This document shows positions 655-63,754 of a stretch of DNA of 64,000 nucleotides, in pieces. The position numbers and the translations under genes are program-made. Below the pieces are notes generated by a model, which did no database searches, was not told the origin of the DNA, and saw nothing but the letters and a program-made list of their open reading frames with translations. How positions within the stretch are numbered: position 1 is the stretch's first letter; every line of letters starts with the position of its first letter. This stretch comes from Lingula anatina (lineage: Eukaryota; Animalia; Brachiopoda), in the NCBI GenBank assembly GCA_051362555.1, contig CM120645.1:1178001-1242000 (forward strand), read 5' to 3'.

Positions 655-956
655 GTATTTGAAGTATATGTGTTCATAGTTAAAGGTACTTAGTGTAAGC
701 TTTTCCCTTGAAAAACACATATTACTTTAGAATTTTTCCTGGTGGGAACAGTATTTTCTCTGACCAACCATCCTTTGATGATGCTTTCTGCCCACATGCC
801 ATATTTCTGTAAGATTCCAGTAAAATTAAGAAGTCCTCACCCATGCTTAATAGCTTAATGTCTACTCCACTTCACAGCCTCACCCTCAACTTCAGAGAAG
901 TTAATAACAAATTATTGAGCTTGGATCGTGACGAGTTTTCAAAATTCTCTCCACAG

Positions 957-1516
957 GAGATGGCACACTGAAATACGAAGACCTTCTCGAGTGGTGGAGA
1001 GAGAAAAATGCTGACTCTGATTCCCGTCTCATCCTCGTCTTGGACACGGAACATTCCTACAAGTGGGCCAAACCAGTTCACAAAACCAGGGACGCTTTTA
1101 TAGCTCTTCAGGCAACGAAGATTGGAAAATACACAGACCCTGAAGAGGGCGCCACAATCAAATTGGGTGACTTCACCAAGGAGTGGGTGGAGTATAACAA
1201 CGTCAGTCTAAGCGGGGACAGCGATATCAACTGGAAGGATTCAAGTCGCGTCATTAAGGCTGTCTATTCCACTTCTCGGTGCTGGACTGACTTTACCTTC
1301 CATCTGCCGACCGAGGACGAGATCGCGCAGCACTGGCAGAGCAACTTCCCCAAGTTTACGCGTCCTCTGATCAAAGCTACTCACTTCTGCCCCAGTGTCA
1401 GCAACCTATGCTTTTGCTGTGACTGTGTTGTGAGGTGTATGAGGAGAAAAAAGATGGCTTGGTTTCCGCCATCTGAGTTGGATACTGGGCATGGGTTTAA
1501 ATTGGTCAGGTCTTAG
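957..1516 (+). CDS. TMEM168: TMEM168, last coding exon
   Basis: ccacag|GA phase-1 acceptor fits the previous exon. Translates GDGTLKYEDLLEWWREKN...LGDFTKEWVEYN...WFPPSELDTGHGFKLVRS*, close to the TMEM168 C-terminus (LDTGQGFKLVKS). Confidence 0.92.
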
Positions 1517-5578: not shown

Positions 5579-6169
5579 TTAACACAAGTCTTCTTCCTCT
5601 TCCTCCTCAGATTCCTCAGCTAATGGCATCTCGTTAAAAGTCTCTCGTATACAGTTGTAATCCTCCAAAGTGTTGTCACTAAACGATATCCCAAAGTTCT
5701 TGCTCTGAATCTTGATTTCATGGAAATCCTGGGGTATGTACATCATGTCAGGAGTGACGTCACCCACCAGGTAGGACTCCGTGGAGCTACGATGAATCTT
5801 ACGAAATGCCATACAGTGCAGGTGTTCCTGTTTTACGTACTTCCATCTCTTGTACCCCAGTGACTCGATTGCTTTCTTCCAGCTTTTCATCATAGGAGCG
5901 TTCCTATTTTGATGACCGCTGTCCGGCGTGATCACCAACAGGAGACCATTGATCATCAGCAGCTGCTGGGCCTTCTGGCAGCACAGCCATCTTTGATACG
6001 CTGAGGGGAAATATTCCAAGAGAAGAGAGAAGACAACAACGTGAAAGCACTCCGCAGGGAGCCTCTCTATGGGATCTTTGACAGACTGGAGATAAGAGTC
6101 CATGGTGTCCACAGCGAGTTGGAGAGGCTCTGACAGTTCTAGGTGAAGGAAATCACAGTGATACACAGA
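5579..6169 (-). CDS. SAMTOR: SAMTOR/BMT2 (C7orf60), exon 4 (last), C-terminal part of the methyltransferase-like domain
   Basis: ttccag|TCT phase-0 acceptor. Translates SVYHCDFL...FHVVVFSLLLEYFPSAYQRWLCCQKAQQLLMINGLLLVITPDSGHQNRNAPMMKSWKKAIE...HLHCMAFRK...MYIPQDF, the SAMTOR signature, with an acidic tail and TAA stop. Confidence 0.93.
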   Translation of the reverse strand, partial: SVYHCDFLHLELSEPLQLAVDTMDSYLQSVKDPIERLPAECFHVVVFSLLLEYFPSAYQRWLCCQKAQQLLMINGLLLVITPDSGHQNRNAPMMKSWKKAIESLGYKRWKYVKQEHLHCMAFRKIHRSSTESYLVGDVTPDMMYIPQDFHEIKIQSKNFGISFSDNTLEDYNCIRETFNEMPLAEESEEEEEEDLC

Positions 6170-6820
6170 CTGGAAGTAGAATCATCTTTACGGTAATTAC
6201 TACTGAAATATGAGCAACATGACTTCAAAATTAAAAAAAAAAAAGAAAGCTTTAAAATTGACACAAAAGTTTTTAAAAGAGAGTTTGCTTCACGTCAAAC
6301 ACAACATTTGCTGTCTCAAAATGATAAATGCTACAAAAAATTGGAAATTTTCAATAATTCATCTCCCTAATGTCTGAATACTTATTAAGTACTACAGTCT
6401 TCATCACACTTCATTTTTATGACAATGGTAAATATTTATAAAAATCCAGATGTGATATTCCATTAATGTTTTCCTCTTTCTTTCCAGGATGCATAAATTA
6501 CACCTAGCTTTATTTTATATTCAAAAGTTTAACCCTTCTAAAAATAAATTACACTAATTTCTTACTGCAGCAGTGAATTGGAAACAACTGACTTAATTTT
6601 ATCACAATTTCCTAAATCATTTTCTGTTTATAATTTCTAAATTTTGATTAGAAAATTATGAACAGTGATTCATTTCAAATCGATTAATATTCATTCATTC
6701 ATTTATTTATTCATTCATCTATTCACTTATTGAGATTCCTGAAGATGAGAAATCTTGACATTATTAATTTTTGGAATAAAAGATGTTTGTAATTAGTAAG
6801 CAGGTGCCAGGTTTCCTCAC

Positions 6821-6935
6821 CTCTACGGCAGGACTGATATCTATACCCAGTGCCAGGAATTCCTCAAACTCCCTGAAAGGATTAAAACAGCTGCCAACAT
6901 CTAGCAGGCGAATCCTTCCCCGGAATGGCAGAGTT
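6821..6935 (-). CDS. SAMTOR: SAMTOR exon 3 (SAM-binding motif I)
   Basis: ccccag|A ... GAG|gtgagg. Translates [38 protein letters not shown], matching the recalled [13 protein letters not shown]...GIDI.PAVE. Phase 2 in, phase 0 out. Confidence 0.93.
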
Positions 6936-7262
6936 CTGGGGAAAAAATAAAAAATGAAAGTTTTAATTTTTTTTTACACAAATAAGGCATGTTTGAATTA
7001 GTAAGTTATTGGAGTGTTAAATCTTATATATATATATATATATGATGAAACATCTTTATCTCCCACCAAACAATACATCTTTATGACAATTTCAGCACTG
7101 TAATCAAGGCCACCCTGACCCCAAGGGAGAGACTTTTGCTCCACAAAAGTCGTTAATCCAACAATAGTCAGAAAAACCTAATTACTGCATCAACACATCC
7201 CAAAAAGTCAGAAAATCCTCAGATATTCTGATAAGCAGAAAAGACTCCACTTTGCAACTCAC

Positions 7263-8541
7263 ACAGAGGTGTAATTTCCTTTGGATAGCTGGTGTTGTTT
7301 GGACCTCCATGCCTCCTGGTCAGAGGGTACAAAAAAACCATCACTGTCCACCCCTGATGAACTGGACAGACCCCCCAGGGACTGGCTGCCCACAGATGGC
7401 AGAGACTGGACCTCACTACTGGGTGACACACTGTAGTTGTTGTTGTCATAGAGATCTGTGGGGCCTCGAAAGGGGGGTTCTGGTTGTTCCTTAGTAGGAC
7501 TGTTCAATGGGAGGCTTTGAGTGGGAGGCTCCGAGTGTTCCTTGGCAGGGCTGTTCAAGTGGGGGATACATATGGGGGGTTCTGGCTGATCTCTGGTGGA
7601 AATATCAGGCTGAGGCTCACAACTGGGAGGTTCTGAATGTTGTTTTGTACTTGAATCAGCCATATGAGCTGTGTCTGTTAATCTCATGGCACTTGGGAAT
7701 TGTTCAGCCTCTGTAGGTGTTTCTTCAGCTGGGAGAACTGGGCTTTTCTCAGTGGATGTTGGCTCAGGGGGCAGTTGCCATGGTTGTAGAATGTGAGTAG
7801 CTTGTAATATATCCGTAGGAAATGAGTCTGGTAGTTTCCTTCTCCTAGCTGGAGGAGACTGAGCAGTTGTCTCAGCCTCTGTATTGCCACTTCTCTGTTG
7901 TAACTTCTCTGAGTCCAGCTTCATCATGTCACTGGTTTTAGAAGTCATTGTTTCCACTTTGGTGTTACACTGCCTGCATTGCACTGGGTAAACTTTCTTG
8001 TCAGTGTCTGAGAATTCTTGTACAGTCTTTGTATTGAGATCAGTGTGGGAGAGATCAAGTTGATCTATATTGTCCTTTGCTCTTTGGCAGGAGACACAAT
8101 AGGATGACTCCTCCAGAAGATAAGTGTCAGTTGTTTGAGCAGATTCTTGACCAAATAACTGTAAGTTTGATAATGCTGTTGATAACTCCACATCGCTGGC
8201 AGTCTCGGGGTGTTTGACAAACGATGTGTGTGTCACCTGACCGTCAGTGACAATCACGTTAGACGTTGATACCTCACAGTCATCACTCGTCTGACTACTC
8301 ATGGAGTCTCGGTGTGAGAACTGCCTATTGAACAACCTCTGTCTCTCTTCCTTATCCAGGGCTCTCTTCAGCCCCCCTTCCAGGAAGTATTCCAAACAGG
8401 TGCGTCGACACCAATGGATTCGCGTTTCGGGATTTTTGCTCCAGTGGTCAACGGCCAGATGGTGCATCGCCTCAGCATATTCTGTGAGGAGATCTTGGTT
8501 AGAGCAGTGCTCATTCCACACTTTATTAAAGTCACCATTAC
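7263..8541 (-). CDS. SAMTOR: SAMTOR exon 2 (1279 nt): conserved N-terminal region plus a long low-complexity insertion
   Basis: cttcag|GT acceptor gives SNGDFNKVWNEHC...EYAEAMHHLAVDHW...RIHWC...EYF.EGGLKRALDKEE. The frame stays open to a consensus GT|gtgagt donor at 7263/7262, in the phase 2 that exon 3 requires. Confidence 0.82.
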
Positions 8542-8920
8542 CTGAAGATCAAATATACAAAACCGTTACATGTATGGAGCGAGATATACCACTTTTTTTT
8601 TTAGCTGGGATAGAGCCTCTATAAACAATCTAGTGATGTGGTCGGCTCATACCCTGCATCAACTATATGCATTTCAATTTTGAAAAAAAAAAAACGTAAT
8701 GAATAAATAAATTTTACTAAAAATAAATGTTTAACTTATCTCCATAGCTTTTTAAATGACGGTAGTCTAGTCTGATATTGAAATATTTGTTTAGCGATTC
8801 ATCTAGAACAATCATCAACCTAACAGAGTTACAATCTAGGTTTGGGAGTATCACGTCGAATTTCCATCAAAAACTTGAAAACGACAAAATAAAATCATAA
8901 GACAAAGTGTGATGACTCAC

Positions 8921-9082: not shown

Positions 9083-10004
9083 AACACAATCGGACCTTCC
9101 TTCCAAGGAGAACGTCGCAGTTAGATTGCGTCAGGATAGCTCAGCTAACACAATGGGGTGGGCTGCATACAGCGGTTATTCAGTGCAGCCAGATCTAAAG
9201 TCCTTGGAGTTGGCCAGTCAGCTGCCAACGGAGCTCATTCTAAATTTTTTGTGCATTCAAATCCAACAATAAACAACTTAAACCATTTATAACAGCTCGA
9301 TATTAGCATTTGTTATTTGTATTAGATCCTTATCCACTTCAGTACAGCGTATCCGTTGGGGGTGGGGGGTGGGTGGGGGCGGGAGGGCTGGGAGTGTTGG
9401 GGCATCGGGGGTGCATACTCGGATTGTCTTATAATTAAACGTTTTGGGGTAAGAAAATTGATCATTTTTAACAAAGCACCCTCTATTGTGGTTACCTTCT
9501 TATTGTAAACTTCTAAAGAGGTTACTTTTCTATAAGCGGGCGAAATACTAGGTTGATTATAAATAGCAACTCTTTATCACAATGCGATGACGCAATTTTA
9601 CAAAAAAAAAAAAAAAAAAAAAGAAAGAAAGAAAATACTACTTAGATTGTTTCGGATATGATCGCCCGACCTCGGCATGACTGATCTACCAGACGCGGGA
9701 CCAGTACGTGGTCCATAATAAATATACCTTCAAAATATCGCATTTACAACACCTCAAATTCTTCCTTCCAATGAAAGTCCCTTTTTTTAGTTCTTGAAAA
9801 GTAAAGTTTTGTTTTAAACTTTTTTTATTAACCTACAAAAGTAAAATACAAACCACCGTGAGTCAATTTAAAGTGCGAGTTTTGCTTAAATGATCTTTTT
9901 ATTATCTAATTATCCAAAAATAATAAATATTCCTAAGAATAATGTAAAAAAAAATTTCTCATCAAAACTTGGTTTATTCTTCGGCGTTTCTATTAAAGAG
10001 AGGG

Positions 10005-10039
<35 letters not shown>

Positions 10040-28595: not shown

Positions 28596-28760
28596 GACAA
28601 TGGCATGGAGGGGGGCGCCACAGATCAAGACGTTGCAATGAATCTCTCCACGTCCAAAGAACAGCAAATACAACACCGTCAACATCAACAGCAGCAGCAG
28701 CAACAACAACGTATGACAACCAATGGGAATGTTGAACACGAAAATGGAGATGTTTCCCAT
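28596..28760 (+). CDS. FoxP: FoxP N-terminal exon with polyQ
   Basis: ttctag|GAC ... CAT|gtaaga, 165 nt, phase 0/0. Translates DNGMEGGATDQDVAMNLSTSKEQQIQHRQHQQQQQQQQRMTTNGNVEHENGDVSH; AMNLST resembles the AINLST motif recalled from invertebrate FoxP N-termini. Confidence 0.8.
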
Positions 28761-30561: not shown

Positions 30562-30801
30562 GATCTCAGCTCGCTGAAGATGAACGGCACCAAGCGTCCC
30601 AGTAGCACACAGCGATCCAAGTCAGATCTTTCTCCTCAGCAGGTGTCTGGGGATCTCAGCCAACAGAATGCACTGATGTTGATGTCGTCGTCGCAGGGAC
30701 TGTCTCCGCAGCAGTTACAGCAGTTATTACAGCAGCAGCAGCAGTTATTGTCGGGTCCACAGCAAGTACAGATGATGCAACAGCAGATACTACAGCAGCA
30801 G
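30562..30801 (+). CDS. FoxP: FoxP Q-rich exon
   Basis: atccag|GAT ... CAG|gtaggt, 240 nt. Translates DLSSLKMNGTKRP...GLSPQQLQQLLQQQQQ...QQQILQQQ; LSPQQLQ is typical of FoxP. Confidence 0.88.
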
Positions 30802-32660: not shown

Positions 32661-32925
32661 CAAAGCCACAAATTCCACGAACAAGTTCTCCAGCAGCTCA
32701 ACGAGCAGCTCCAGTTCAACATCCTCCAGCAGTCGCAGCTTGTCCAGCAGCAAGCCAGCGCCCAGGGGGAGAAAAAGCCACAGAATCTAAAACAAATCCA
32801 GTCACAGCTCCAGCAGTTGGCAGTCCAGCAGCAGCAGCTCATCCAGCAGATCCAGATGCAACAAAGACAGTATTTACTGGCACAGGGCATTGGGCTGCCG
32901 CTACATCAGTTTGGAGTGCATCCAG
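32661..32925 (+). CDS. FoxP: FoxP Q-rich exon
   Basis: tttcag|CAA ... CCA G|gtaagg, 265 nt. Translates QSHKFHEQVLQQLNEQLQFNILQQSQ...QLQQLAVQQQQLIQQIQMQQRQYLLAQGIGLPLHQFGVHP, in a frame different from the track ORF. Confidence 0.88.
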
Positions 32926-39965: not shown

Positions 39966-40175
39966 GAATGTCTCCGGCGGAGTTACAACAGTTATGGAAG
40001 GAGGTATCAGGTCAAGGTCACGGCACTGGAAACAGAGACCACAACGAAGACACTGACACCATGTTAAAAAATGGCACCACAAATGGACTGAATCAACTTC
40101 TCGTCTCTGGTGGTGTGCCGTCATCGTTCCCTTCTTTCCTGCCTAATGGATTTAACGATCCTTTTCTACTAGCGG
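39966..40175 (+). CDS. FoxP: FoxP exon (SPAELQQLWKEV)
   Basis: ttgtag|GA ... GCG G|gtatgt, 210 nt, phase 1/1. GMSPAELQQLWKEV is a conserved FoxP motif. Confidence 0.93.
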
Positions 40176-41625: not shown

Positions 41626-41752
41626 GAGGCTTGTTAAATCCTCTGAAACCAGACGGGGGAGCAGCTCCAGGGACGCACCCCTTATATGGTCACGGGGTAT
41701 GTAAGTGGCCCGGCTGTGACACACCCTGTGATGATTTCGCATCATTTTTAAA
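41626..41752 (+). CDS. FoxP: FoxP exon, first half of the C2H2 zinc finger
   Basis: ttccag|GA ... AA|gtaagt. Translates ...[27 protein letters not shown]. Confidence 0.95.
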
Positions 41753-45932: not shown

Positions 45933-46020
45933 ACATATCAATAATGAACATCAGTTGGATGATAGAAGCACAGCTCAGGCGAGAGTCCAGATGCAGGTCG
46001 TCAGTCAGCTAGAAATACAG
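45933..46020 (+). CDS. FoxP: FoxP exon, end of the zinc finger and first half of the leucine zipper
   Basis: ttacag|A ... CAG|gtaatt, 88 nt. Translates [29 protein letters not shown]. Confidence 0.96.
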
Positions 46021-55519: not shown

Positions 55520-55672
55520 TTGGCCAAGGAAAGGGAGCGTCTCCAGGCCATGATGCAGCATCTCCACATGACCCCCAAACAGCCACCCCCCCTGGCCCCC
55601 CTCCAACCCCCTCAGGTGGACAGCAAACACGAGCTGCCCGTCAGCATGGCACTTAATCTTACACCTCAGTCG
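55520..55672 (+). CDS. FoxP: FoxP exon, second half of the leucine zipper plus a CtBP-like ALNLT motif
   Basis: ttccag|TTG ... TCG|gtacgt, 153 nt. Translates LAKERERLQAMMQHLHM...SMALNLTPQS. Confidence 0.94.
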
Positions 55673-56114: not shown

Positions 56115-56346
56115 ATTCCTTCTCCCCTCCAGTTAAAACAGCCAGTAGTGAGCGTCCCCAACCCCCTTCCCGTGCTGACACCCCCCACACGTAGCCCTCC
56201 CACCAACAGCACGCCCAAACAGAGCGCGCCAACGACACCGCACACACCTCAGTCCATGCTGTCAACACCGCAGAACTCGCGACCGAGCAGCGCGGGGCCC
56301 GTGCGGAGACGTGTCTCGGATAAGTGCAATCTGCCAATCTCAGCAG
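56115..56346 (+). CDS. FoxP: FoxP P/T/S-rich exon ending in GPVRRRVSDK
   Basis: tttcag|ATT ... GCA G|gtactg, 232 nt. ...SSAGPVRRRVSDKCNLPISA is the conserved pre-forkhead motif. Alternative in-frame boundaries are possible. Confidence 0.88.
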
Positions 56347-57467: not shown

Positions 57468-57544
57468 AAATACAACGAAATCGAGAGTTCTACAAGAATA
57501 CGGACGTCAGGCCGCCATTCACCTATGCCTCGTTAATCAGACAG
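57468..57544 (+). CDS. FoxP: FoxP exon, start of the forkhead domain
   Basis: tttcag|AA ... CAG|gtgaga, 77 nt. Translates [26 protein letters not shown]. Not listed in the ORF track. Confidence 0.96.
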
Positions 57545-58723
57545 GTGAGACAGGGGGTTTCATGGTTGTCACAATATTTTCACAAAGTTTAATTATTTAC
57601 AGATTGTATACATCAATCAAGGTTGCTTGATTTTATGTATCCATGCAATCTTTGATAGAATTCATATCTTGTTCACTGAAAGACTGCTTCTCTTGTACAA
57701 AGTGAGGGGTTCTGGTTTTGAAAAAGCATTTACAGGATAGAAAATTATGCTTACAAGTTTGATTTTTATTTTCCTTTCCTTTTAAATTTCTAAAACAAGG
57801 GTATTGTTGTGTGTGTCATACACGTGCATTTCCTGTTGTTGACTTCCAGATGTTTATTCAAAAACTTGATTAATGTAATTAATAAGTTGATATTTTGTTA
57901 GCTATGTGTCAGTAAATATGTACAAAATGCTTTTGTAACTGAAAAATAATGATTATAATAGTGATATTTTTAAGTTATTGGTTTAAATCTGACTGAACAC
58001 ACTCTCTGCTCATATCTTTAGTGTTATGCTAGGATTCATCTTGTCTCAATCTTTTAAATGAATTGTTATGGCACAAAAAATCACCACTCAACTATTTTTG
58101 ATTTTACTTTTTTGGTTTATTTTTGTAAAAATTTAAATTGATAAAACTTTGAATGCAAACCGTGATACTGTTCCAAATTTTATGATATATCATGAGAATT
58201 AATATATATAACAACGAAAAAAATGTCGAATGTCAATGTTTTAGAAATTTTGATTGAAACAAGGAGAATAAACTTGTATGTCAAGCATTGTCGTCTATCA
58301 AAAAGGATTACGCCCACGGCCTTGTATTGAAAATAAGTAAAAATTGAAATGCTAAGAGATTCAGAGCAGAGAGAGTTCTAGATATGGTGTTTTGGGTCCA
58401 GTTGCATGAAGAATACAATTTCTTGTCATCTCCCTGAACTTTACTTCACAGCTGCACCTTATTCTTCACAGTCACTTGTTCTCTGTTATTTTATTATTTT
58501 TAATTATTTATTCATTTTTATTTATTTTATTTTATTTTTTGGTATTATTATAGCTAAAACATCTTATTCCTTAGCATGTCTCTTTAAACTCAGCTGTTGA
58601 TATGAAATTAATCCTTGTTCTGGTTGCTAGAGATTTTCCATATTTATAACCTGATTATATTCTGTTGTCTTAGCATGAAATAACACATTTTATCTTTTAC
58701 TTTTTCATGCATATCAGTTTAAT

Positions 58724-61523
58724 TATTGTACCACCAGCGTAGGCGCTGGCGGTACCCATGGTTTTAGTCCCGACCCGTATGTTCCGCCGGCTCCGCCGGC
58801 TCCTGCGGCTCCTGCGGCTCCGCCGGCTCCGCCGCCAAGTCACCGTTACCGCTTCTCCTCCTAGACGGTAAGGGCCCCTGTACCCATCTCTTGGATTTAG
58901 GTCACCTATAATCTCAACTCGTTCCACGTAAAATTTGGGCTTTGTCGGTATTGGGGTCTAGGTGTGGCACTCATTGCAATGCACCCTTGTCTAAAAATGG
59001 CAAAATTAAATGCTAATTATCTACCCTACGGAAGGAGTTATGGGAAAAATTTCTACAGACAGCTTTCCAAAAGTCATATGTGTAGATTTCAAATATGCCC
59101 TTGGATTTGACCTTTGACCTTTATTTCAAGGTCAAACGGGCCAAAATTTTCAAAAAAATGAATTTTTTTACGAAAAAAATTTTTTTTGCCCTGTTATTCA
59201 GATACCACACAGACTTAACCAATAATATTATTGGAAAGTGTAACCCTTCGGGTCATCTTTCATCTCCGTGAATTTGGGGTCAATCGGTGCATTTTCACGG
59301 GAGTAGCGGCCATAAAGTACCGAAACTGAAAACTGTCTCTAATTCGGGAACCGTTAATGCTAGAGACCCATTCTTTTTTGCATTTTGTAGAGCATGTAAA
59401 GCCCAACACTGGAGGTGGTCTCCATTTTTTTGTATTCCATACGGTTTTCAAGTTACGCTGTATCAAAAAGTACATATTGGTGGTGAAAGCAAAATGTGCA
59501 GTACGGTAATGAATAATAAATTTTGAACTCTGGAAAAATAATACATAAGGCTTGGCAAAGCAGACAACTTGTGGTCAAAAATGACATTATTTCATCAAAT
59601 TTGAACTTCTGGAAATTCAGAGCACCTCCTATTTTAAGAATTTTGACCAAAATGATGTTTTCTTTATTTTAATTAATCTTTTCTGTAGGAAATTTATGGC
59701 ACATTATGGTAACTCCAAAATTATAACATTTAGTCCCTTATATCTCCAAAACTGGCAGAGATAGGTCCATAGTTACTATTGAAGTTGAATAGGAAGTAAC
59801 ATACTGGCAATCCAAATGTGACCTTGAAATTGACCTTTGACCTACTTTTCACCATGAACTGAACTTTGCAAATTTTGCTTCCCTTTTATCTCCAAAACTG
59901 GCAGAGATAGGTCCATAGTTACTATTGAACTTGAATGGGAAGTCTTATACTGGCAATCTAAATGTGACCTTTAAATTGACCTTTGACCTACTTTTCACCA
60001 TGAACTGAACTTTGCAAATTTTGCTTCCCTTATATCTCCAAAACTGGCAGAGATAGGTCCATAGTTTTTATTGAACTTGAATGGGAAGTAATATACTGGC
60101 AATCTATATGTGACCTTAAAATTGACCTTTGACCTATTTTTCACCATGAACTGAACTTTGCATATTTTGCTTCCCTTTTATCTCCAAAACTGGCAGAGAT
60201 AGGTCCATAGTTTCTATTGAACTTGAATAGGAAGTCATATACTGGCAGTCTTAAAATGACCGTAAAATTGACATTTGACCTACTTTTCACCATGAACTGA
60301 ACTTTGCAAATTTTGCTTCCCTTTTATCTCCAAAACTGGCAGAGATAGGTCCATAGTTACTATTGAACTTGAATAGGAAGTCATATACTGGCAATCTAAA
60401 TGTGACCTTAAAATTGACCTTTGACCTACTTTTCACCATGAACTGAACTTTACAAATTTTGCTTCCCTTTTATCTCTTAAACTGGGAGAGATAGGTCCAT
60501 AGTTACTATTGAACTTGAATAGGAAGTCATATACTGGCAATCTAAATGTGACCTTAAAATTGACCTTTGACCTACTTTTCACTATGAACTGAACTTTGCA
60601 AATTTTGCTTCCCTTTTATCTTTAAAGTTACACTGTATCAAAAAATACATATTGGTGGTGAAAGCAAAATGTGCAGTACGGTAATGGATAATAAATTTTG
60701 AACTCCGGAAAAATAATACATAAGGCTTGGCAAAGCAGACAACTTGTGGTCAAAAATGACATTATTTCATCAAATTTGAACTTCTGGAACTTCAGAGCAC
60801 CTCCTATTTTAAGAATTTTGACCAAAATGATGTTTTCTTTATTTTAATTAATCTTTTCTGTAGGAAATTTATGGCACATTATGGTAACTCCAAAATTATA
60901 ACATTTAGTCCCTTTTATCTGCAAAACTGGCAGAGATAGGTCCATAGATACTATTGAACTTGAATAGAAAGTCATATACTGGCAATCTTACTGTGACCTT
61001 GAAATTGACATTTGACCTATTTTTCACCATGAACTGAACTTTGCAAATTTTGCTTCCCTTTTATCTCTAAAACTGGCAGAGATAGGTCCATAGTTACTAT
61101 TGAACTTGAATAGGAAGTCATATACTGGCAATCTAAGTGTGACCTTGAAATTGACCTTTGATCTACTTATTATCATGAACTGAACTCTGCTAATTTCTTT
61201 CTCTTTTAACTCCAAACCTGGCAGAGATAGGTCCATAGTTACTATTGAACTTGAATAGGAAGTCATATACTGGCAATTTACTGTGACCTTGAAAATGACC
61301 TTTCACCTACCTTACGATGAACTTAAATTTGATTGTACCATTTTTAGTTTCATATATTTTTTGCATATATTGAAAATTCTTGTTGATTGCATGTTTACAG
61401 CTTGTCAAGCACAAGACTGGTGACTGTGTCCCTTATTTTGTGTATGTGGGGGTCTATACGAATGCGCTTGCTCCAGCTGGTGGTACAATATTCGGAGGCG
61501 GTATCGCCTCTCTGATCCTCTAG
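58724..61523 (+). mobile_element. Non-autonomous Helentron (HINE/DINE-1-like), 2.8 kb, with internal satellite array
   Basis: 5' subTIR TATTGTACCACCAGC (58724-58738) with adjacent partial inverted copy GCTGGCGGTAC; GC-rich CGGCTCCKC microsatellite; central tandem repeats; 3' subTIR GCTGGTGGTACAATA (61476-61490); terminal hairpin GAGGCG-gtat-CGCCTC, then CTAG and a T run. Confidence 0.85.
59738..61320. repeat. 146-bp tandem satellite, 6 + 3 copies separated by a duplicated segment of about 300 bp
   Basis: The ACTGGCAGAGATAGGTCC anchor (one copy with a mismatch) recurs at 59751, 59897, 60043, 60189, 60335, 60481, then 60926, 61072 and about 61218. Confidence 0.93.
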
Positions 61524-62242
61524 TTTTTTCTTAAGTTTTTTGTTGCTTTGTTTTAAAGATTAACATTTAACCTGATAGATAGCTTTGAATTAATTTTTTT
61601 TAATTGCTGCGGAAAACAAAATAGTGTTAATAGTCAACAAAGCTACTTTTTATCTTCTTAACTGACTTGGAATAATTAATATTAACTACTATTTTTATTA
61701 AGCTAACATACAAAATATGCATTGAAAACGTTCTGCCTGTCACAGGTTCTAAAATGAATATGTTAGTTTAGAGGAAGATGAAGTTATAAATAAAAAACAT
61801 GGTATAATATATGATGAGGGGATTGTGTAGATGCAAAATTACATTATTTACATCAGAAAAACTTTGTAAAGTTTTGCATTGATAAGCATTAATTGAAGGA
61901 CTAAACATGTTCATTTTATGGCATTCTATTTGAGTTTGAATTCAGGATATTGATTTCTATAAAGAACTACAAAATTAGCTGATTTCGCAACATTTTTCAG
62001 ACCTCCTTTTGTCTAAAAAAATTTTTTAAAAACTTAAGATATTTAGAGCTTAAAATCTGCTGTGTTTTAAGTACAGGTCATGATCAAAAACACCAAATTT
62101 TGTATCAATATAAGTGAGGGATGCATGAAGCATGGGTCAGTTTAGTGTGTTGTTTCATCTAACCATTTTCTTGTGTAATCTTCCAATCACTCTGTGTGTG
62201 TCTTTCCTGTGTGATTGCAGTGCTTTCTCTTTCAAATTGCAG

Positions 62243-62344
62243 GCAGTTATCGAATCTCCAGAAAAACAGCTAACTTTAAATGAAATCTACAACTGGTTCC
62301 AAAACACTTTTGCATTCTTCCGGAAAAATGCTGCCACCTGGAAG
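62243..62344 (+). CDS. FoxP: FoxP forkhead exon, variant A (end of helix 1, helix 2, hinge)
   Basis: ttgcag|GCA ... AAG|gtttgt, 102 nt. Translates [34 protein letters not shown]. Confidence 0.93.
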
Positions 62345-62660
62345 GTTTGTATGGTGACATAGCTAGGGAATGTGACACAACATCATGGTGGCAAGCCATG
62401 GACAGCAGCGCAATCACAAATCTCAGCTACTGCAATGCAGATTGTATCCTGTTGAGCATATTTGATCAGTTAACCCCCACCCCCCACCCTCATCTCCCAC
62501 CCCAACACATCTCCATGACCCTCATTTTTCAGAGGAGGGGCATGGTTGGAAACTTTGAATGAAATTGGGAAGAAAGGTGATTGTATGCTGTACTGAACTG
62601 CCACCTTGATGAGTTATTAACTGTATATTACATGTGGGTTTTATTATTACTTTAATTCAG

Positions 62661-62762
62661 GCCATAATAGACTCTCCTAACAAACAGTTAACCCTAAATG
62701 AAATATACCAGTGGTTCACAAACACATTTTCTTACTTTAGAAGAAATGAGGCCACATGGAAG
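62661..62762 (+). CDS. FoxP: FoxP forkhead exon, variant B (paralogous, probably mutually exclusive with A)
   Basis: attcag|GCC ... AAG|gtaaaa, 102 nt. Translates [34 protein letters not shown]. Confidence 0.92.
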
Positions 62763-62974
62763 GTAAAACAAATTCTCATTGTAGATGTGTTCTTGAGTTT
62801 ATTTGCTTATATTTGCCCATGAATTAATATATCGCATTGTAATTTTTGGAAAAATTACAAATTAGGAAAAATTGTTGTGCTAATCAGAAAGATTTCATTT
62901 TCTTAAAATTTGAGTCAAAAGAGGAATATTTATTGATATGTTATATGGTGTATGTATAGAAATAATTACACTGC

Positions 62975-63014
<40 letters not shown>

Positions 63015-63263
63015 ATCACTAGAAATTTGATAATTCTAAGTGCATATTAAAAGCGAAAAAAAATTAGTGCACATTTTAATTTTTGAAAGTAAAATTAATT
63101 GACTGACTTTATCAGGTAATCTTATGAAATTGAATATCTTGCCTTGAAAAAAAAGGAAAATACATAATTATATGTTACTGTTTGAAATATATATCACAGT
63201 ACAGTTTTAATTACTTATCTGAAACAAGTAACTTGGGGTTTAAGGGAAGACCATAAAACAGTG

Positions 63264-63508
63264 AAGGTACCTTAAAGAGAAACATATCTGCTGTTTATGA
63301 AATTATGTTTATGAGTGTGTCATATTGTGTAGGTATATCAGTCATTTCTCAGCTGTGGTTCACCACTAGTGCCCTCTAGTGGTAGGTAATAGCTGAGCTG
63401 TCTCCACTGTTACTCCCCCTTGCTGCAGTATCCTCATAGCCATGAGGAATGGAGGGTAAGGCTACATACCATAACATACACAGCAGATATTTTTCCTTAA
63501 GGTACCTT
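63264..63508. mobile_element. TTAA-type MITE (Kolobok-like)
   Basis: Inverted ends AAGGTACCTTAAAGAGAAACATATCTGCTGT / ACAGCAGATATTTTTCCTTAAGGTACCTT, with TTAA in both ends. Confidence 0.7.
63370..63382. promoter_or_regulatory. CTCF consensus-like site TGCCCTCTAGTGG
   Basis: Close match to the CTCF core motif (CCACTAGAGGGCA on the - strand), inside the MITE. Confidence 0.5.
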
Positions 63509-63632
63509 TATTGTATGTTTATCATTATATGGTCAACCAAAATCAATGATTTTCCGGTATCAAATAAGATTGAAATGTTGATGATTGTATCGCTGTTTCA
63601 CTGTTGACCTTATTTTCCTCTCAACCAATCAG

Positions 63633-63754
63633 AATGCAGTACGACACAACCTCAGTCTACATAAGTGCTTCATGCGGGTCGAGAATGTCAAAGGCGCCGT
63701 CTGGACTGTCGACGAAATTGAATTCTACAAACGCAGACCACAAAAAATGAGTGG
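63633..63754 (+). CDS. FoxP: FoxP forkhead exon with recognition helix 3 and wing
   Basis: aatcag|AAT ... GG|gtacgt, 122 nt. Translates [41 protein letters not shown]. The gene probably continues beyond the window. Confidence 0.97.

Follow-up and report, generated by a model that had tools for sequence, protein, structure and literature searches.

Can one FoxP gene choose between two versions of the exon that carries the hinge of its forkhead domain, and how might the resulting proteins differ? The question is raised by a 64,000-nt stretch of Lingula anatina DNA (the window), in which an earlier note, made from the letters alone, had described two neighbouring forkhead exons, A and B, as an old duplication with both copies maintained and probably spliced in one at a time. 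We report that A and B form a second mutually exclusive exon pair within the FoxP forkhead domain, one that is real, used in RNA, and probably ancient.

Exons A and B and their use in RNA

The host gene is FoxP, with a Forkhead domain and, upstream of it, a FOXP coiled coil and a zinc finger. Its parts in the window, with the features discussed below, are:

28596-28760, 30562-30801, 32661-32925, 39966-40175 (+): upstream FoxP coding exons 1-4 of eight
41626-41752, 45933-46020, 55520-55672, 56115-56346 (+): upstream FoxP coding exons 5-8 of eight; the eight together (28596-56346) hold the Q-rich region, zinc finger, FOXP coiled coil, and linker, with AG/GT sites and an open frame
57468-57544 (+): constant exon opening the forkhead domain, donor for both A and B; its 3' end matches read ends
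62243-62344 (+): exon A, annelid-type copy; end of helix 1, helix 2, hinge A-F, loop R-K-N-A, start of helix 3
62345-62660 (+): A-B intron, 316 nt; predicted long-range duplex of 62381-62417 with 62577-62611, and a branch-point-like TTAAC
62661-62762 (+): exon B, mollusc/nemertean/bryozoan/flatworm-type copy; hinge S-Y, loop R-R-N-E
63258-63514 (+): long hairpin predicted between B and the next exon, present once in the window; z -6.2, with 0 of 100 shuffles as stable
63633-63754 (+): next forkhead exon, NAVRH type, with recognition helix and wings; acceptor for both A and B

Across the nine exons upstream of the pair, AG/GT sites are present throughout and a single frame stays open over 519 codons; Pfam places the FOXP coiled coil (PF16159) there, the zinc-finger exon matches FoxP proteins, and the best structure matches of the forkhead are to FOXP1, FOXP2, FOXP4, and FOXP3. 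Both A and B match Forkhead positions 14-48 (Pfam) and end at position 48, while the NAVRH exon common to both covers positions 49-82. A NAIRT-type version of that next exon occurs in molluscs, nemerteans, and a metagenomic locus (L011); the window stops 246 nt past the NAVRH exon. The intron upstream of exon A holds a 146-nt tandem repeat in ~11 copies (59734-61331). The upstream neighbours of FoxP are a Bmt2-domain gene (Pfam) at 932-1516 (+) and an ORF at 5579-8548 (-) that has no Pfam match and that we take to be TMEM168-like; both genes presumably lie near FOXP2 in humans, which would make the arrangement an old microsynteny.

A and B are adjacent homologues, matched in length and phase and with their splice sites intact: each is 102 nt long, in phase 0, bounded by AG/GT, and free of stops, and each encodes the peptide that the earlier note had read from it. 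Substitutions separate them at 27 of 102 nt and 9 of 34 residues, 11 codon changes are synonymous, and their 200-nt flanks show chance-level local matches only, in line with the residue count, the many synonymous changes, and the unrelated flanks given in the earlier note. The dN between them (0.13-0.17) lies far below the dS (1.5-2.6), suggesting that both copies are under purifying selection; together with RNA that joins both, this favours the proposed old duplication with two maintained copies. Because A and B differ at 27 nt and each has its own RNA junctions, an assembly artefact or a pseudo-exon is ruled out.

RNA reads were placed on 62170-62930, an interval that leaves the flanking exons outside, using three RNA runs from three studies (X14, X17, and X20) and one DNA run (X11); these are four of the 23 runs listed as raw reads under the same species label, and 6-25% of each RNA run was covered. 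Summed over the three RNA runs, junction reads number 13 for upstream-to-A (loose ends in X14, 8; X20, 5), 4 for upstream-to-B (X20, 4), 20 for A-to-next (X14, 7; X17, 4; X20, 9), and 10 for B-to-next (X20, 10). The upstream loose ends of both copies match the exon ending at 57544 and the downstream ones the exon starting at 63633, with 30 of the 30 downstream loose-end reads listed matching 63633-63754. Four joints that the earlier note had put forward for counting are thus seen (57544 to 62243, 57544 to 62661, 62344 to 63633, and 62762 to 63633), and the fifth, A-to-B (62344 to 62661), is listed in none of the three RNA runs at a threshold of at least three reads from two starts, below which one or two such reads would go unlisted. 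The RNA runs have no read depth in the A-B intron except two low-identity reads. With each exon joined to the same neighbours, A and B are almost certainly used one or the other, as had been proposed, in a ratio that varies between samples.

Use of the copies differs between runs: X14 has 15 A junction ends and zero depth on B, X17 has a depth of 1-1.6 on B, and X20 has 14 A and 14 B junction ends, so that B ends are listed in one and B depth is found in two of the three RNA runs. For X14 versus X20, Fisher tests give p = 6e-4 over all ends, a value obtained at low read depth and inflated by mates and double-ended reads that are not independent, 0.023 for downstream ends only, and 0.08 for upstream ends only. 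The difference may reflect tissue, stage, or population; X20 carries other (synonymous) alleles than the window. Since its 28 loose ends sit on 24 reads, at least four X20 reads cross a whole exon. Four X17 reads pass unspliced from the intron into exon A (62170-62247), from pre-mRNA or intron retention. The DNA run, from another organism, gave two short chance pieces only on 62170-62930.

The known FoxP alternative exon is a different one. Santos et al. 2011 (PMC3002244) treat the next exon alone as alternative and draw the exon doubled here as constant, bearing out the earlier note on this point; their pair is the second forkhead exon, alters the base-contacting helix 3 residues H554 and N550, and should yield isoforms that do not differ in domain swapping. 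That A and B are merely the known pair (16/16b or isoA/isoB) is ruled out. The two systems are alike in that Drosophila isoA/isoB and mouse Foxp1 exon 16/16b (PMC3002244; PMC8989529, as far as its accessible text goes) show tandem doubling and exclusive splicing in the same domain of the same gene, and in that both pairs are ancient, with lineage losses. They differ in that A and B vary in helix 2, hinge, and loop and have the base-reading helix 3 residues in common, and in that the A/B distribution looks spiralian rather than bilaterian. A pair like A/B was not found in the main text of Santos et al. 2011 (PMC3002244), nor is one mentioned in the accessible portions of PMC11998571, PMC9539403, PMC8373072, and PMC8989529. 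We found no description of the pair in the openly searchable literature; isoform annotation may exist in databases.

Origin and distribution of the two copies

Residues 7 and 30 of the doubled exon divide FoxP proteins by phylum. Among 92 named rows, which were hand-picked, are related rather than independent, and carry phylum labels from general knowledge, all 42 from molluscs, nemerteans, bryozoans, and Macrostomum have Glu30, and none of the 50 from annelids, ecdysozoans, deuterostomes, and cnidarians does; at position 7 the same 42 have N, H, or L and the other 50 have D or E. Many of the mollusc rows were first found with B as query, and they reappeared in a search with a near full-length relative. 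Exon B has N7 and E30, and exon A has E7. Exon A further shares F25 and K28 with all three named annelids (Owenia, Capitella, and Lamellibrachia), while outgroup rows in the set with F25 or K28 never have both.

An exon tree of 44 rows and 34 columns places all 22 B-type rows (exon B of the window, the B copies of metagenomic loci L003, L007, and L013, molluscs, nemerteans, and bryozoans) in one clade with support 95/89, and neither supports nor rejects an A clade (p-AU 0.415); the flatworm Macrostomum, which carries the B signature, was left out. In a quick-search tree of the gene parts outside the doubled exon (29 rows), the window pairs with the protein P0054 at support 98 and falls outside the sampled molluscs, annelids, and nemerteans. 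Annotated isoform sets of molluscs, Lineus, and Watersipora have one version of the doubled exon in 68 of 68 members containing it; no A-type isoform occurs among these mollusc, nemertean, and bryozoan sequences (68 of 83 cluster members), in which both next-exon versions are present.

Metagenome contigs scanned by motif yielded 14 loci. Four of them (L003, L007, L008, and L013, the last with A cut by the contig start) pair an annelid-type A with an intact downstream copy that has N7 and E30; the four represent about two related lineages, assigned to annelids through the doubled exon only. The pair thus extends beyond one species, as the relatives search suggested in the earlier note could show; the spread across phyla had escaped that note. 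Other loci have partial sets: L012 has A and a second copy that is frameshifted by a 4-nt deletion and cut by the contig end, L011, covered completely as far as the next exon, has A only, L001 has A with nothing further within 2 kb, and five bryozoan-type loci (L004, L005, L006, L009, and L014) have B only, fused to the upstream exon, a loss of the preceding intron that would remove exon A in one step. The short contigs of L002 (B-type) and L010 allow no judgement. In L011 the A-type exon is split by an extra intron (9572-10027), and both next-exon versions lie downstream (11538 and about 12605).

The annelid-type B copies are under purifying selection, with a dN of 0.012 for L003 versus L007 and L013 against dS values of 1.01 and 0.44; dN falls far below dS between the intact orthologous copies of these loci generally, except that the B copies of L007 and L008 are almost identical and set apart by one non-synonymous and no synonymous change. 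In this B (L003:2968-3069, L007:1215-1316) the loop R-R has become E-H and Ala31 has become Leu, yet the exon is conserved, making it a candidate weak-binding or dominant-negative isoform. Tandem copies with unrelated signatures occur in a model from the copepod Eurytemora carolleeae (P0123) and in the P0404 contig, two in each; the P0123 model joins both in one protein, probably an annotation error that hides another alternative pair. These independent duplications indicate that the exon is prone to doubling. A Panonychus citri model (P0323) has three forkhead copies in one protein, with His replacing Ala at position 30.

Judged from these residues and trees, the pair quite probably goes back to one old spiralian duplication that predates the split of annelids, molluscs, and flatworms and was followed by reciprocal loss. 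A would have been kept as the main copy in annelids, B alone in molluscs, nemerteans, bryozoans, and Macrostomum, and both in the Lingula window and some annelid-type animals. We think it unlikely that the window animal and the annelid-type loci instead duplicated the exon recently and independently, with convergence of the shared residues. AU tests do not reject this (p-AU 0.071, at 13.4 lnL worse, for a recent A+B duplication in the window, and 0.121 for one in annelids), and P0123 and P0404 are precedents for separate doubling, but N7 and E30 would have to arise twice in the downstream copy, in the same order, matching the mollusc exon, and the well-supported B clade also speaks against it.

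Folding of the intron between A and B

Because A and B both keep the frame at 102 nt, exclusion by frameshift and decay of the double-exon product is impossible. Folding of the A-B intron is one candidate means. In the window the intron taken whole shows no folding beyond that of its shuffles (z about -0.4 to -0.5); the duplex of 62381-62417 with 62577-62611 has pair probabilities mostly above 0.9 and beats all 200 grid-corrected shuffles, and of 22 control stretches from the gene only one equals it, a hairpin in the intron that follows B. The A-B introns of the four annelid-type loci have fold z-scores of -2.9 to -5.0, each with 0 of 40 shuffles as stable, and helices common to them (about two lineages) are paired in 97.6% of cells; 7 of 93 pairs are compensatory, and 138 of 500 shuffles have at least that many. 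No excess fold was found in eight stretches from six single-exon loci or in the L012 intron, and the paired loci show structure in 5 of 10 flanks too.

The predicted intron fold would bring the A donor near the B branch point, under a steric limit of roughly 50 nt, and so could hinder A-to-B joining. The window has a branch-point-like TTAAC 40 nt upstream of the B acceptor. Measured to putative branch points, the path from the donor along the fold is 23-55 nt, and paths in shuffled sequences are just as short. We put forward such steric exclusion as plausible but tentative. It would resemble that of OGDH 4a/4b and Dscam 17.1/17.2, in which, according to the accessible part of PMC7969005, an equal-frame doublet with a structured intervening intron is kept exclusive by means other than NMD; unlike those doublets, the A-B introns of the window and the paired loci measure 316-706 nt and would need shortening by folding.

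A docking-site/selector pairing of the A donor region with the downstream hairpin was rejected: 13 of 500 shuffles matched it and none of 12 annelid-type tests showed it, after a first scan in which 2 of 19 scan windows had beaten all 25 shuffles, before the larger shuffle set. The predicted hairpin at 63258-63514, for which an Rfam search returned nothing above gathering, could serve in splicing regulation or as an editing substrate. The annelid-type loci have a conserved long-range helix downstream of B.

Hinge, loop, and the two isoforms

From the last part of helix 1, the doubled exon runs through helix 2 and the hinge to the loop that leads into helix 3; the base-reading residues lie in the next exon. 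By our own mapping of FOXP2 and FOXP3 residues, made from structure matches and the numbering of the papers, position 24 is the hinge, occupied by Pro in the FOXP1 chain 2KIU; human FOXP3 reads FAFF. The earlier note had stated that Tyr-to-Phe at the hinge favours domain-swapped dimers, with Ala permitting them, and this is correct: in the accessible text of the two sources, PMC8508939 gives an about 10-fold tighter swapped dimer for FoxP2 Y40F, and bioRxiv 2022.02.08.479534 shows swapping to be suppressed by A372S, the substitution that B carries. Its description of A as FOXP3-like agrees with human FOXP3, while mouse FoxP3 has Tyr where exon A has Phe. A and B thus resemble the engineered hinge mutants A39P/A372S and Y40F (PMC8508939; bioRxiv 2022.02.08.479534, both from the parts available) in carrying Y-to-F (A) and A-to-S (B) naturally; unlike those single changes in vertebrate domains, the hinge changes of A and B come with seven others and are chosen by splicing.

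From this the note had proposed that splice choice toggles swapping, with A (Ala-Phe) as a swap-prone, DNA-bridging form and B (Ser-Tyr) as a swap-resistant one. The direction stands: both hinge changes point the predicted way when set beside Y40F and A372S, Phe is present in three of the three named annelid A copies, and Y373 contacts R337 in the non-swapped fold only (bioRxiv 2022.02.08.479534, accessible text). The toggle itself fares less well and is unlikely, given that the same accessible text describes FoxP1-4 forkheads with their natural linker as monomeric, the functional effect of A372S as little to mild, and the swapped form as impaired, and that PMC10719092, in its available part, assigns DNA bridging to non-swapped ladders. 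Nor do the hinge residues separate the A and B lineages in the sequences compared, since of 42 B-type rows no more than three have Ser24 and two, Macrostomum among them, have Phe25; annelid-type B has Lys at position 24. The residues that mark A versus B across phyla are instead 7 and 30 and, less strictly, 25 and 28, but not 24.

These markers direct attention to the loop. Exon B, without an acidic residue at position 7 and with Glu at 30 just before helix 3, would differ from A in DNA affinity or site preference rather than in fold topology. By analogy with other Fox proteins, in which swaps of the 2-3 loop shift motif preference (PMC12143875, accessible text), A and B may tune DNA binding through the helix 2-3 loop with the recognition helix unchanged; we regard this as close to an even prospect and, on account of those loop swaps, favour it over swapping, a protein-protein surface, and near-equivalence. 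Position 7, one of the two fully diagnostic sites, could alternatively mark a surface for the non-swapped ladder multimer or a cofactor rather than a DNA contact. It adjoins FoxP3 R356 by alignment-based numbering, an intra-rung residue of the FoxP3 DNA-bridging ladder in a mode common to FOXP1, 2, and 4 (PMC10719092, in the portion available); the R356-equivalent position 8 is, however, Lys in both A and B, and invertebrate FoxP is not among the proteins (FoxP3 and FOXP1, 2, and 4) for which the ladder is known, so that we consider a surface difference improbable. Hardly more probable is near-equivalence, with both copies persisting through use in some cells and either losable without cost. 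Copies have indeed been lost in many lineages (bryozoan-type loci have B alone, L011 has A alone, and the second copy of L012 is decaying), and several A/B differences are conservative, but lineage-specific residues are held across phyla, and annelid-type B, strongly diverged (loop E-H-N-E-L), is nonetheless under purifying selection.

Taken whole, the reading of A and B as tandem exclusive exons from an ancient duplication, kept exclusive by a folded intron and giving isoforms that differ in their grip on DNA, seems to us somewhat favoured. The recognition helix is the same in both proteins but the loop before it is not, and for that reason they likely differ in the strength or the sites of their DNA binding. 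A bolder version is doubtful: that the spiralian ancestor doubled the hinge exon, annelids and molluscs hold paralogous halves, and, in animals that kept both copies, RNA-structure splicing flips FoxP between swap-prone and swap-locked forms and the next-exon pair brings the total to four forkheads from one gene. The A/B pair as such would explain the fixed-residue differences between annelid and mollusc FoxP as those of paralogous exons, and such paralogy would call for caution with forkhead-based trees. A and B also offer a natural, otherwise identical protein pair with both engineered hinge changes, and so a direct test of whether domain swapping by FoxP is ever used in vivo. The pair gives FoxP, a much-studied neural and developmental regulator, a second, apparently undescribed layer of alternative splicing in its DNA-binding domain.
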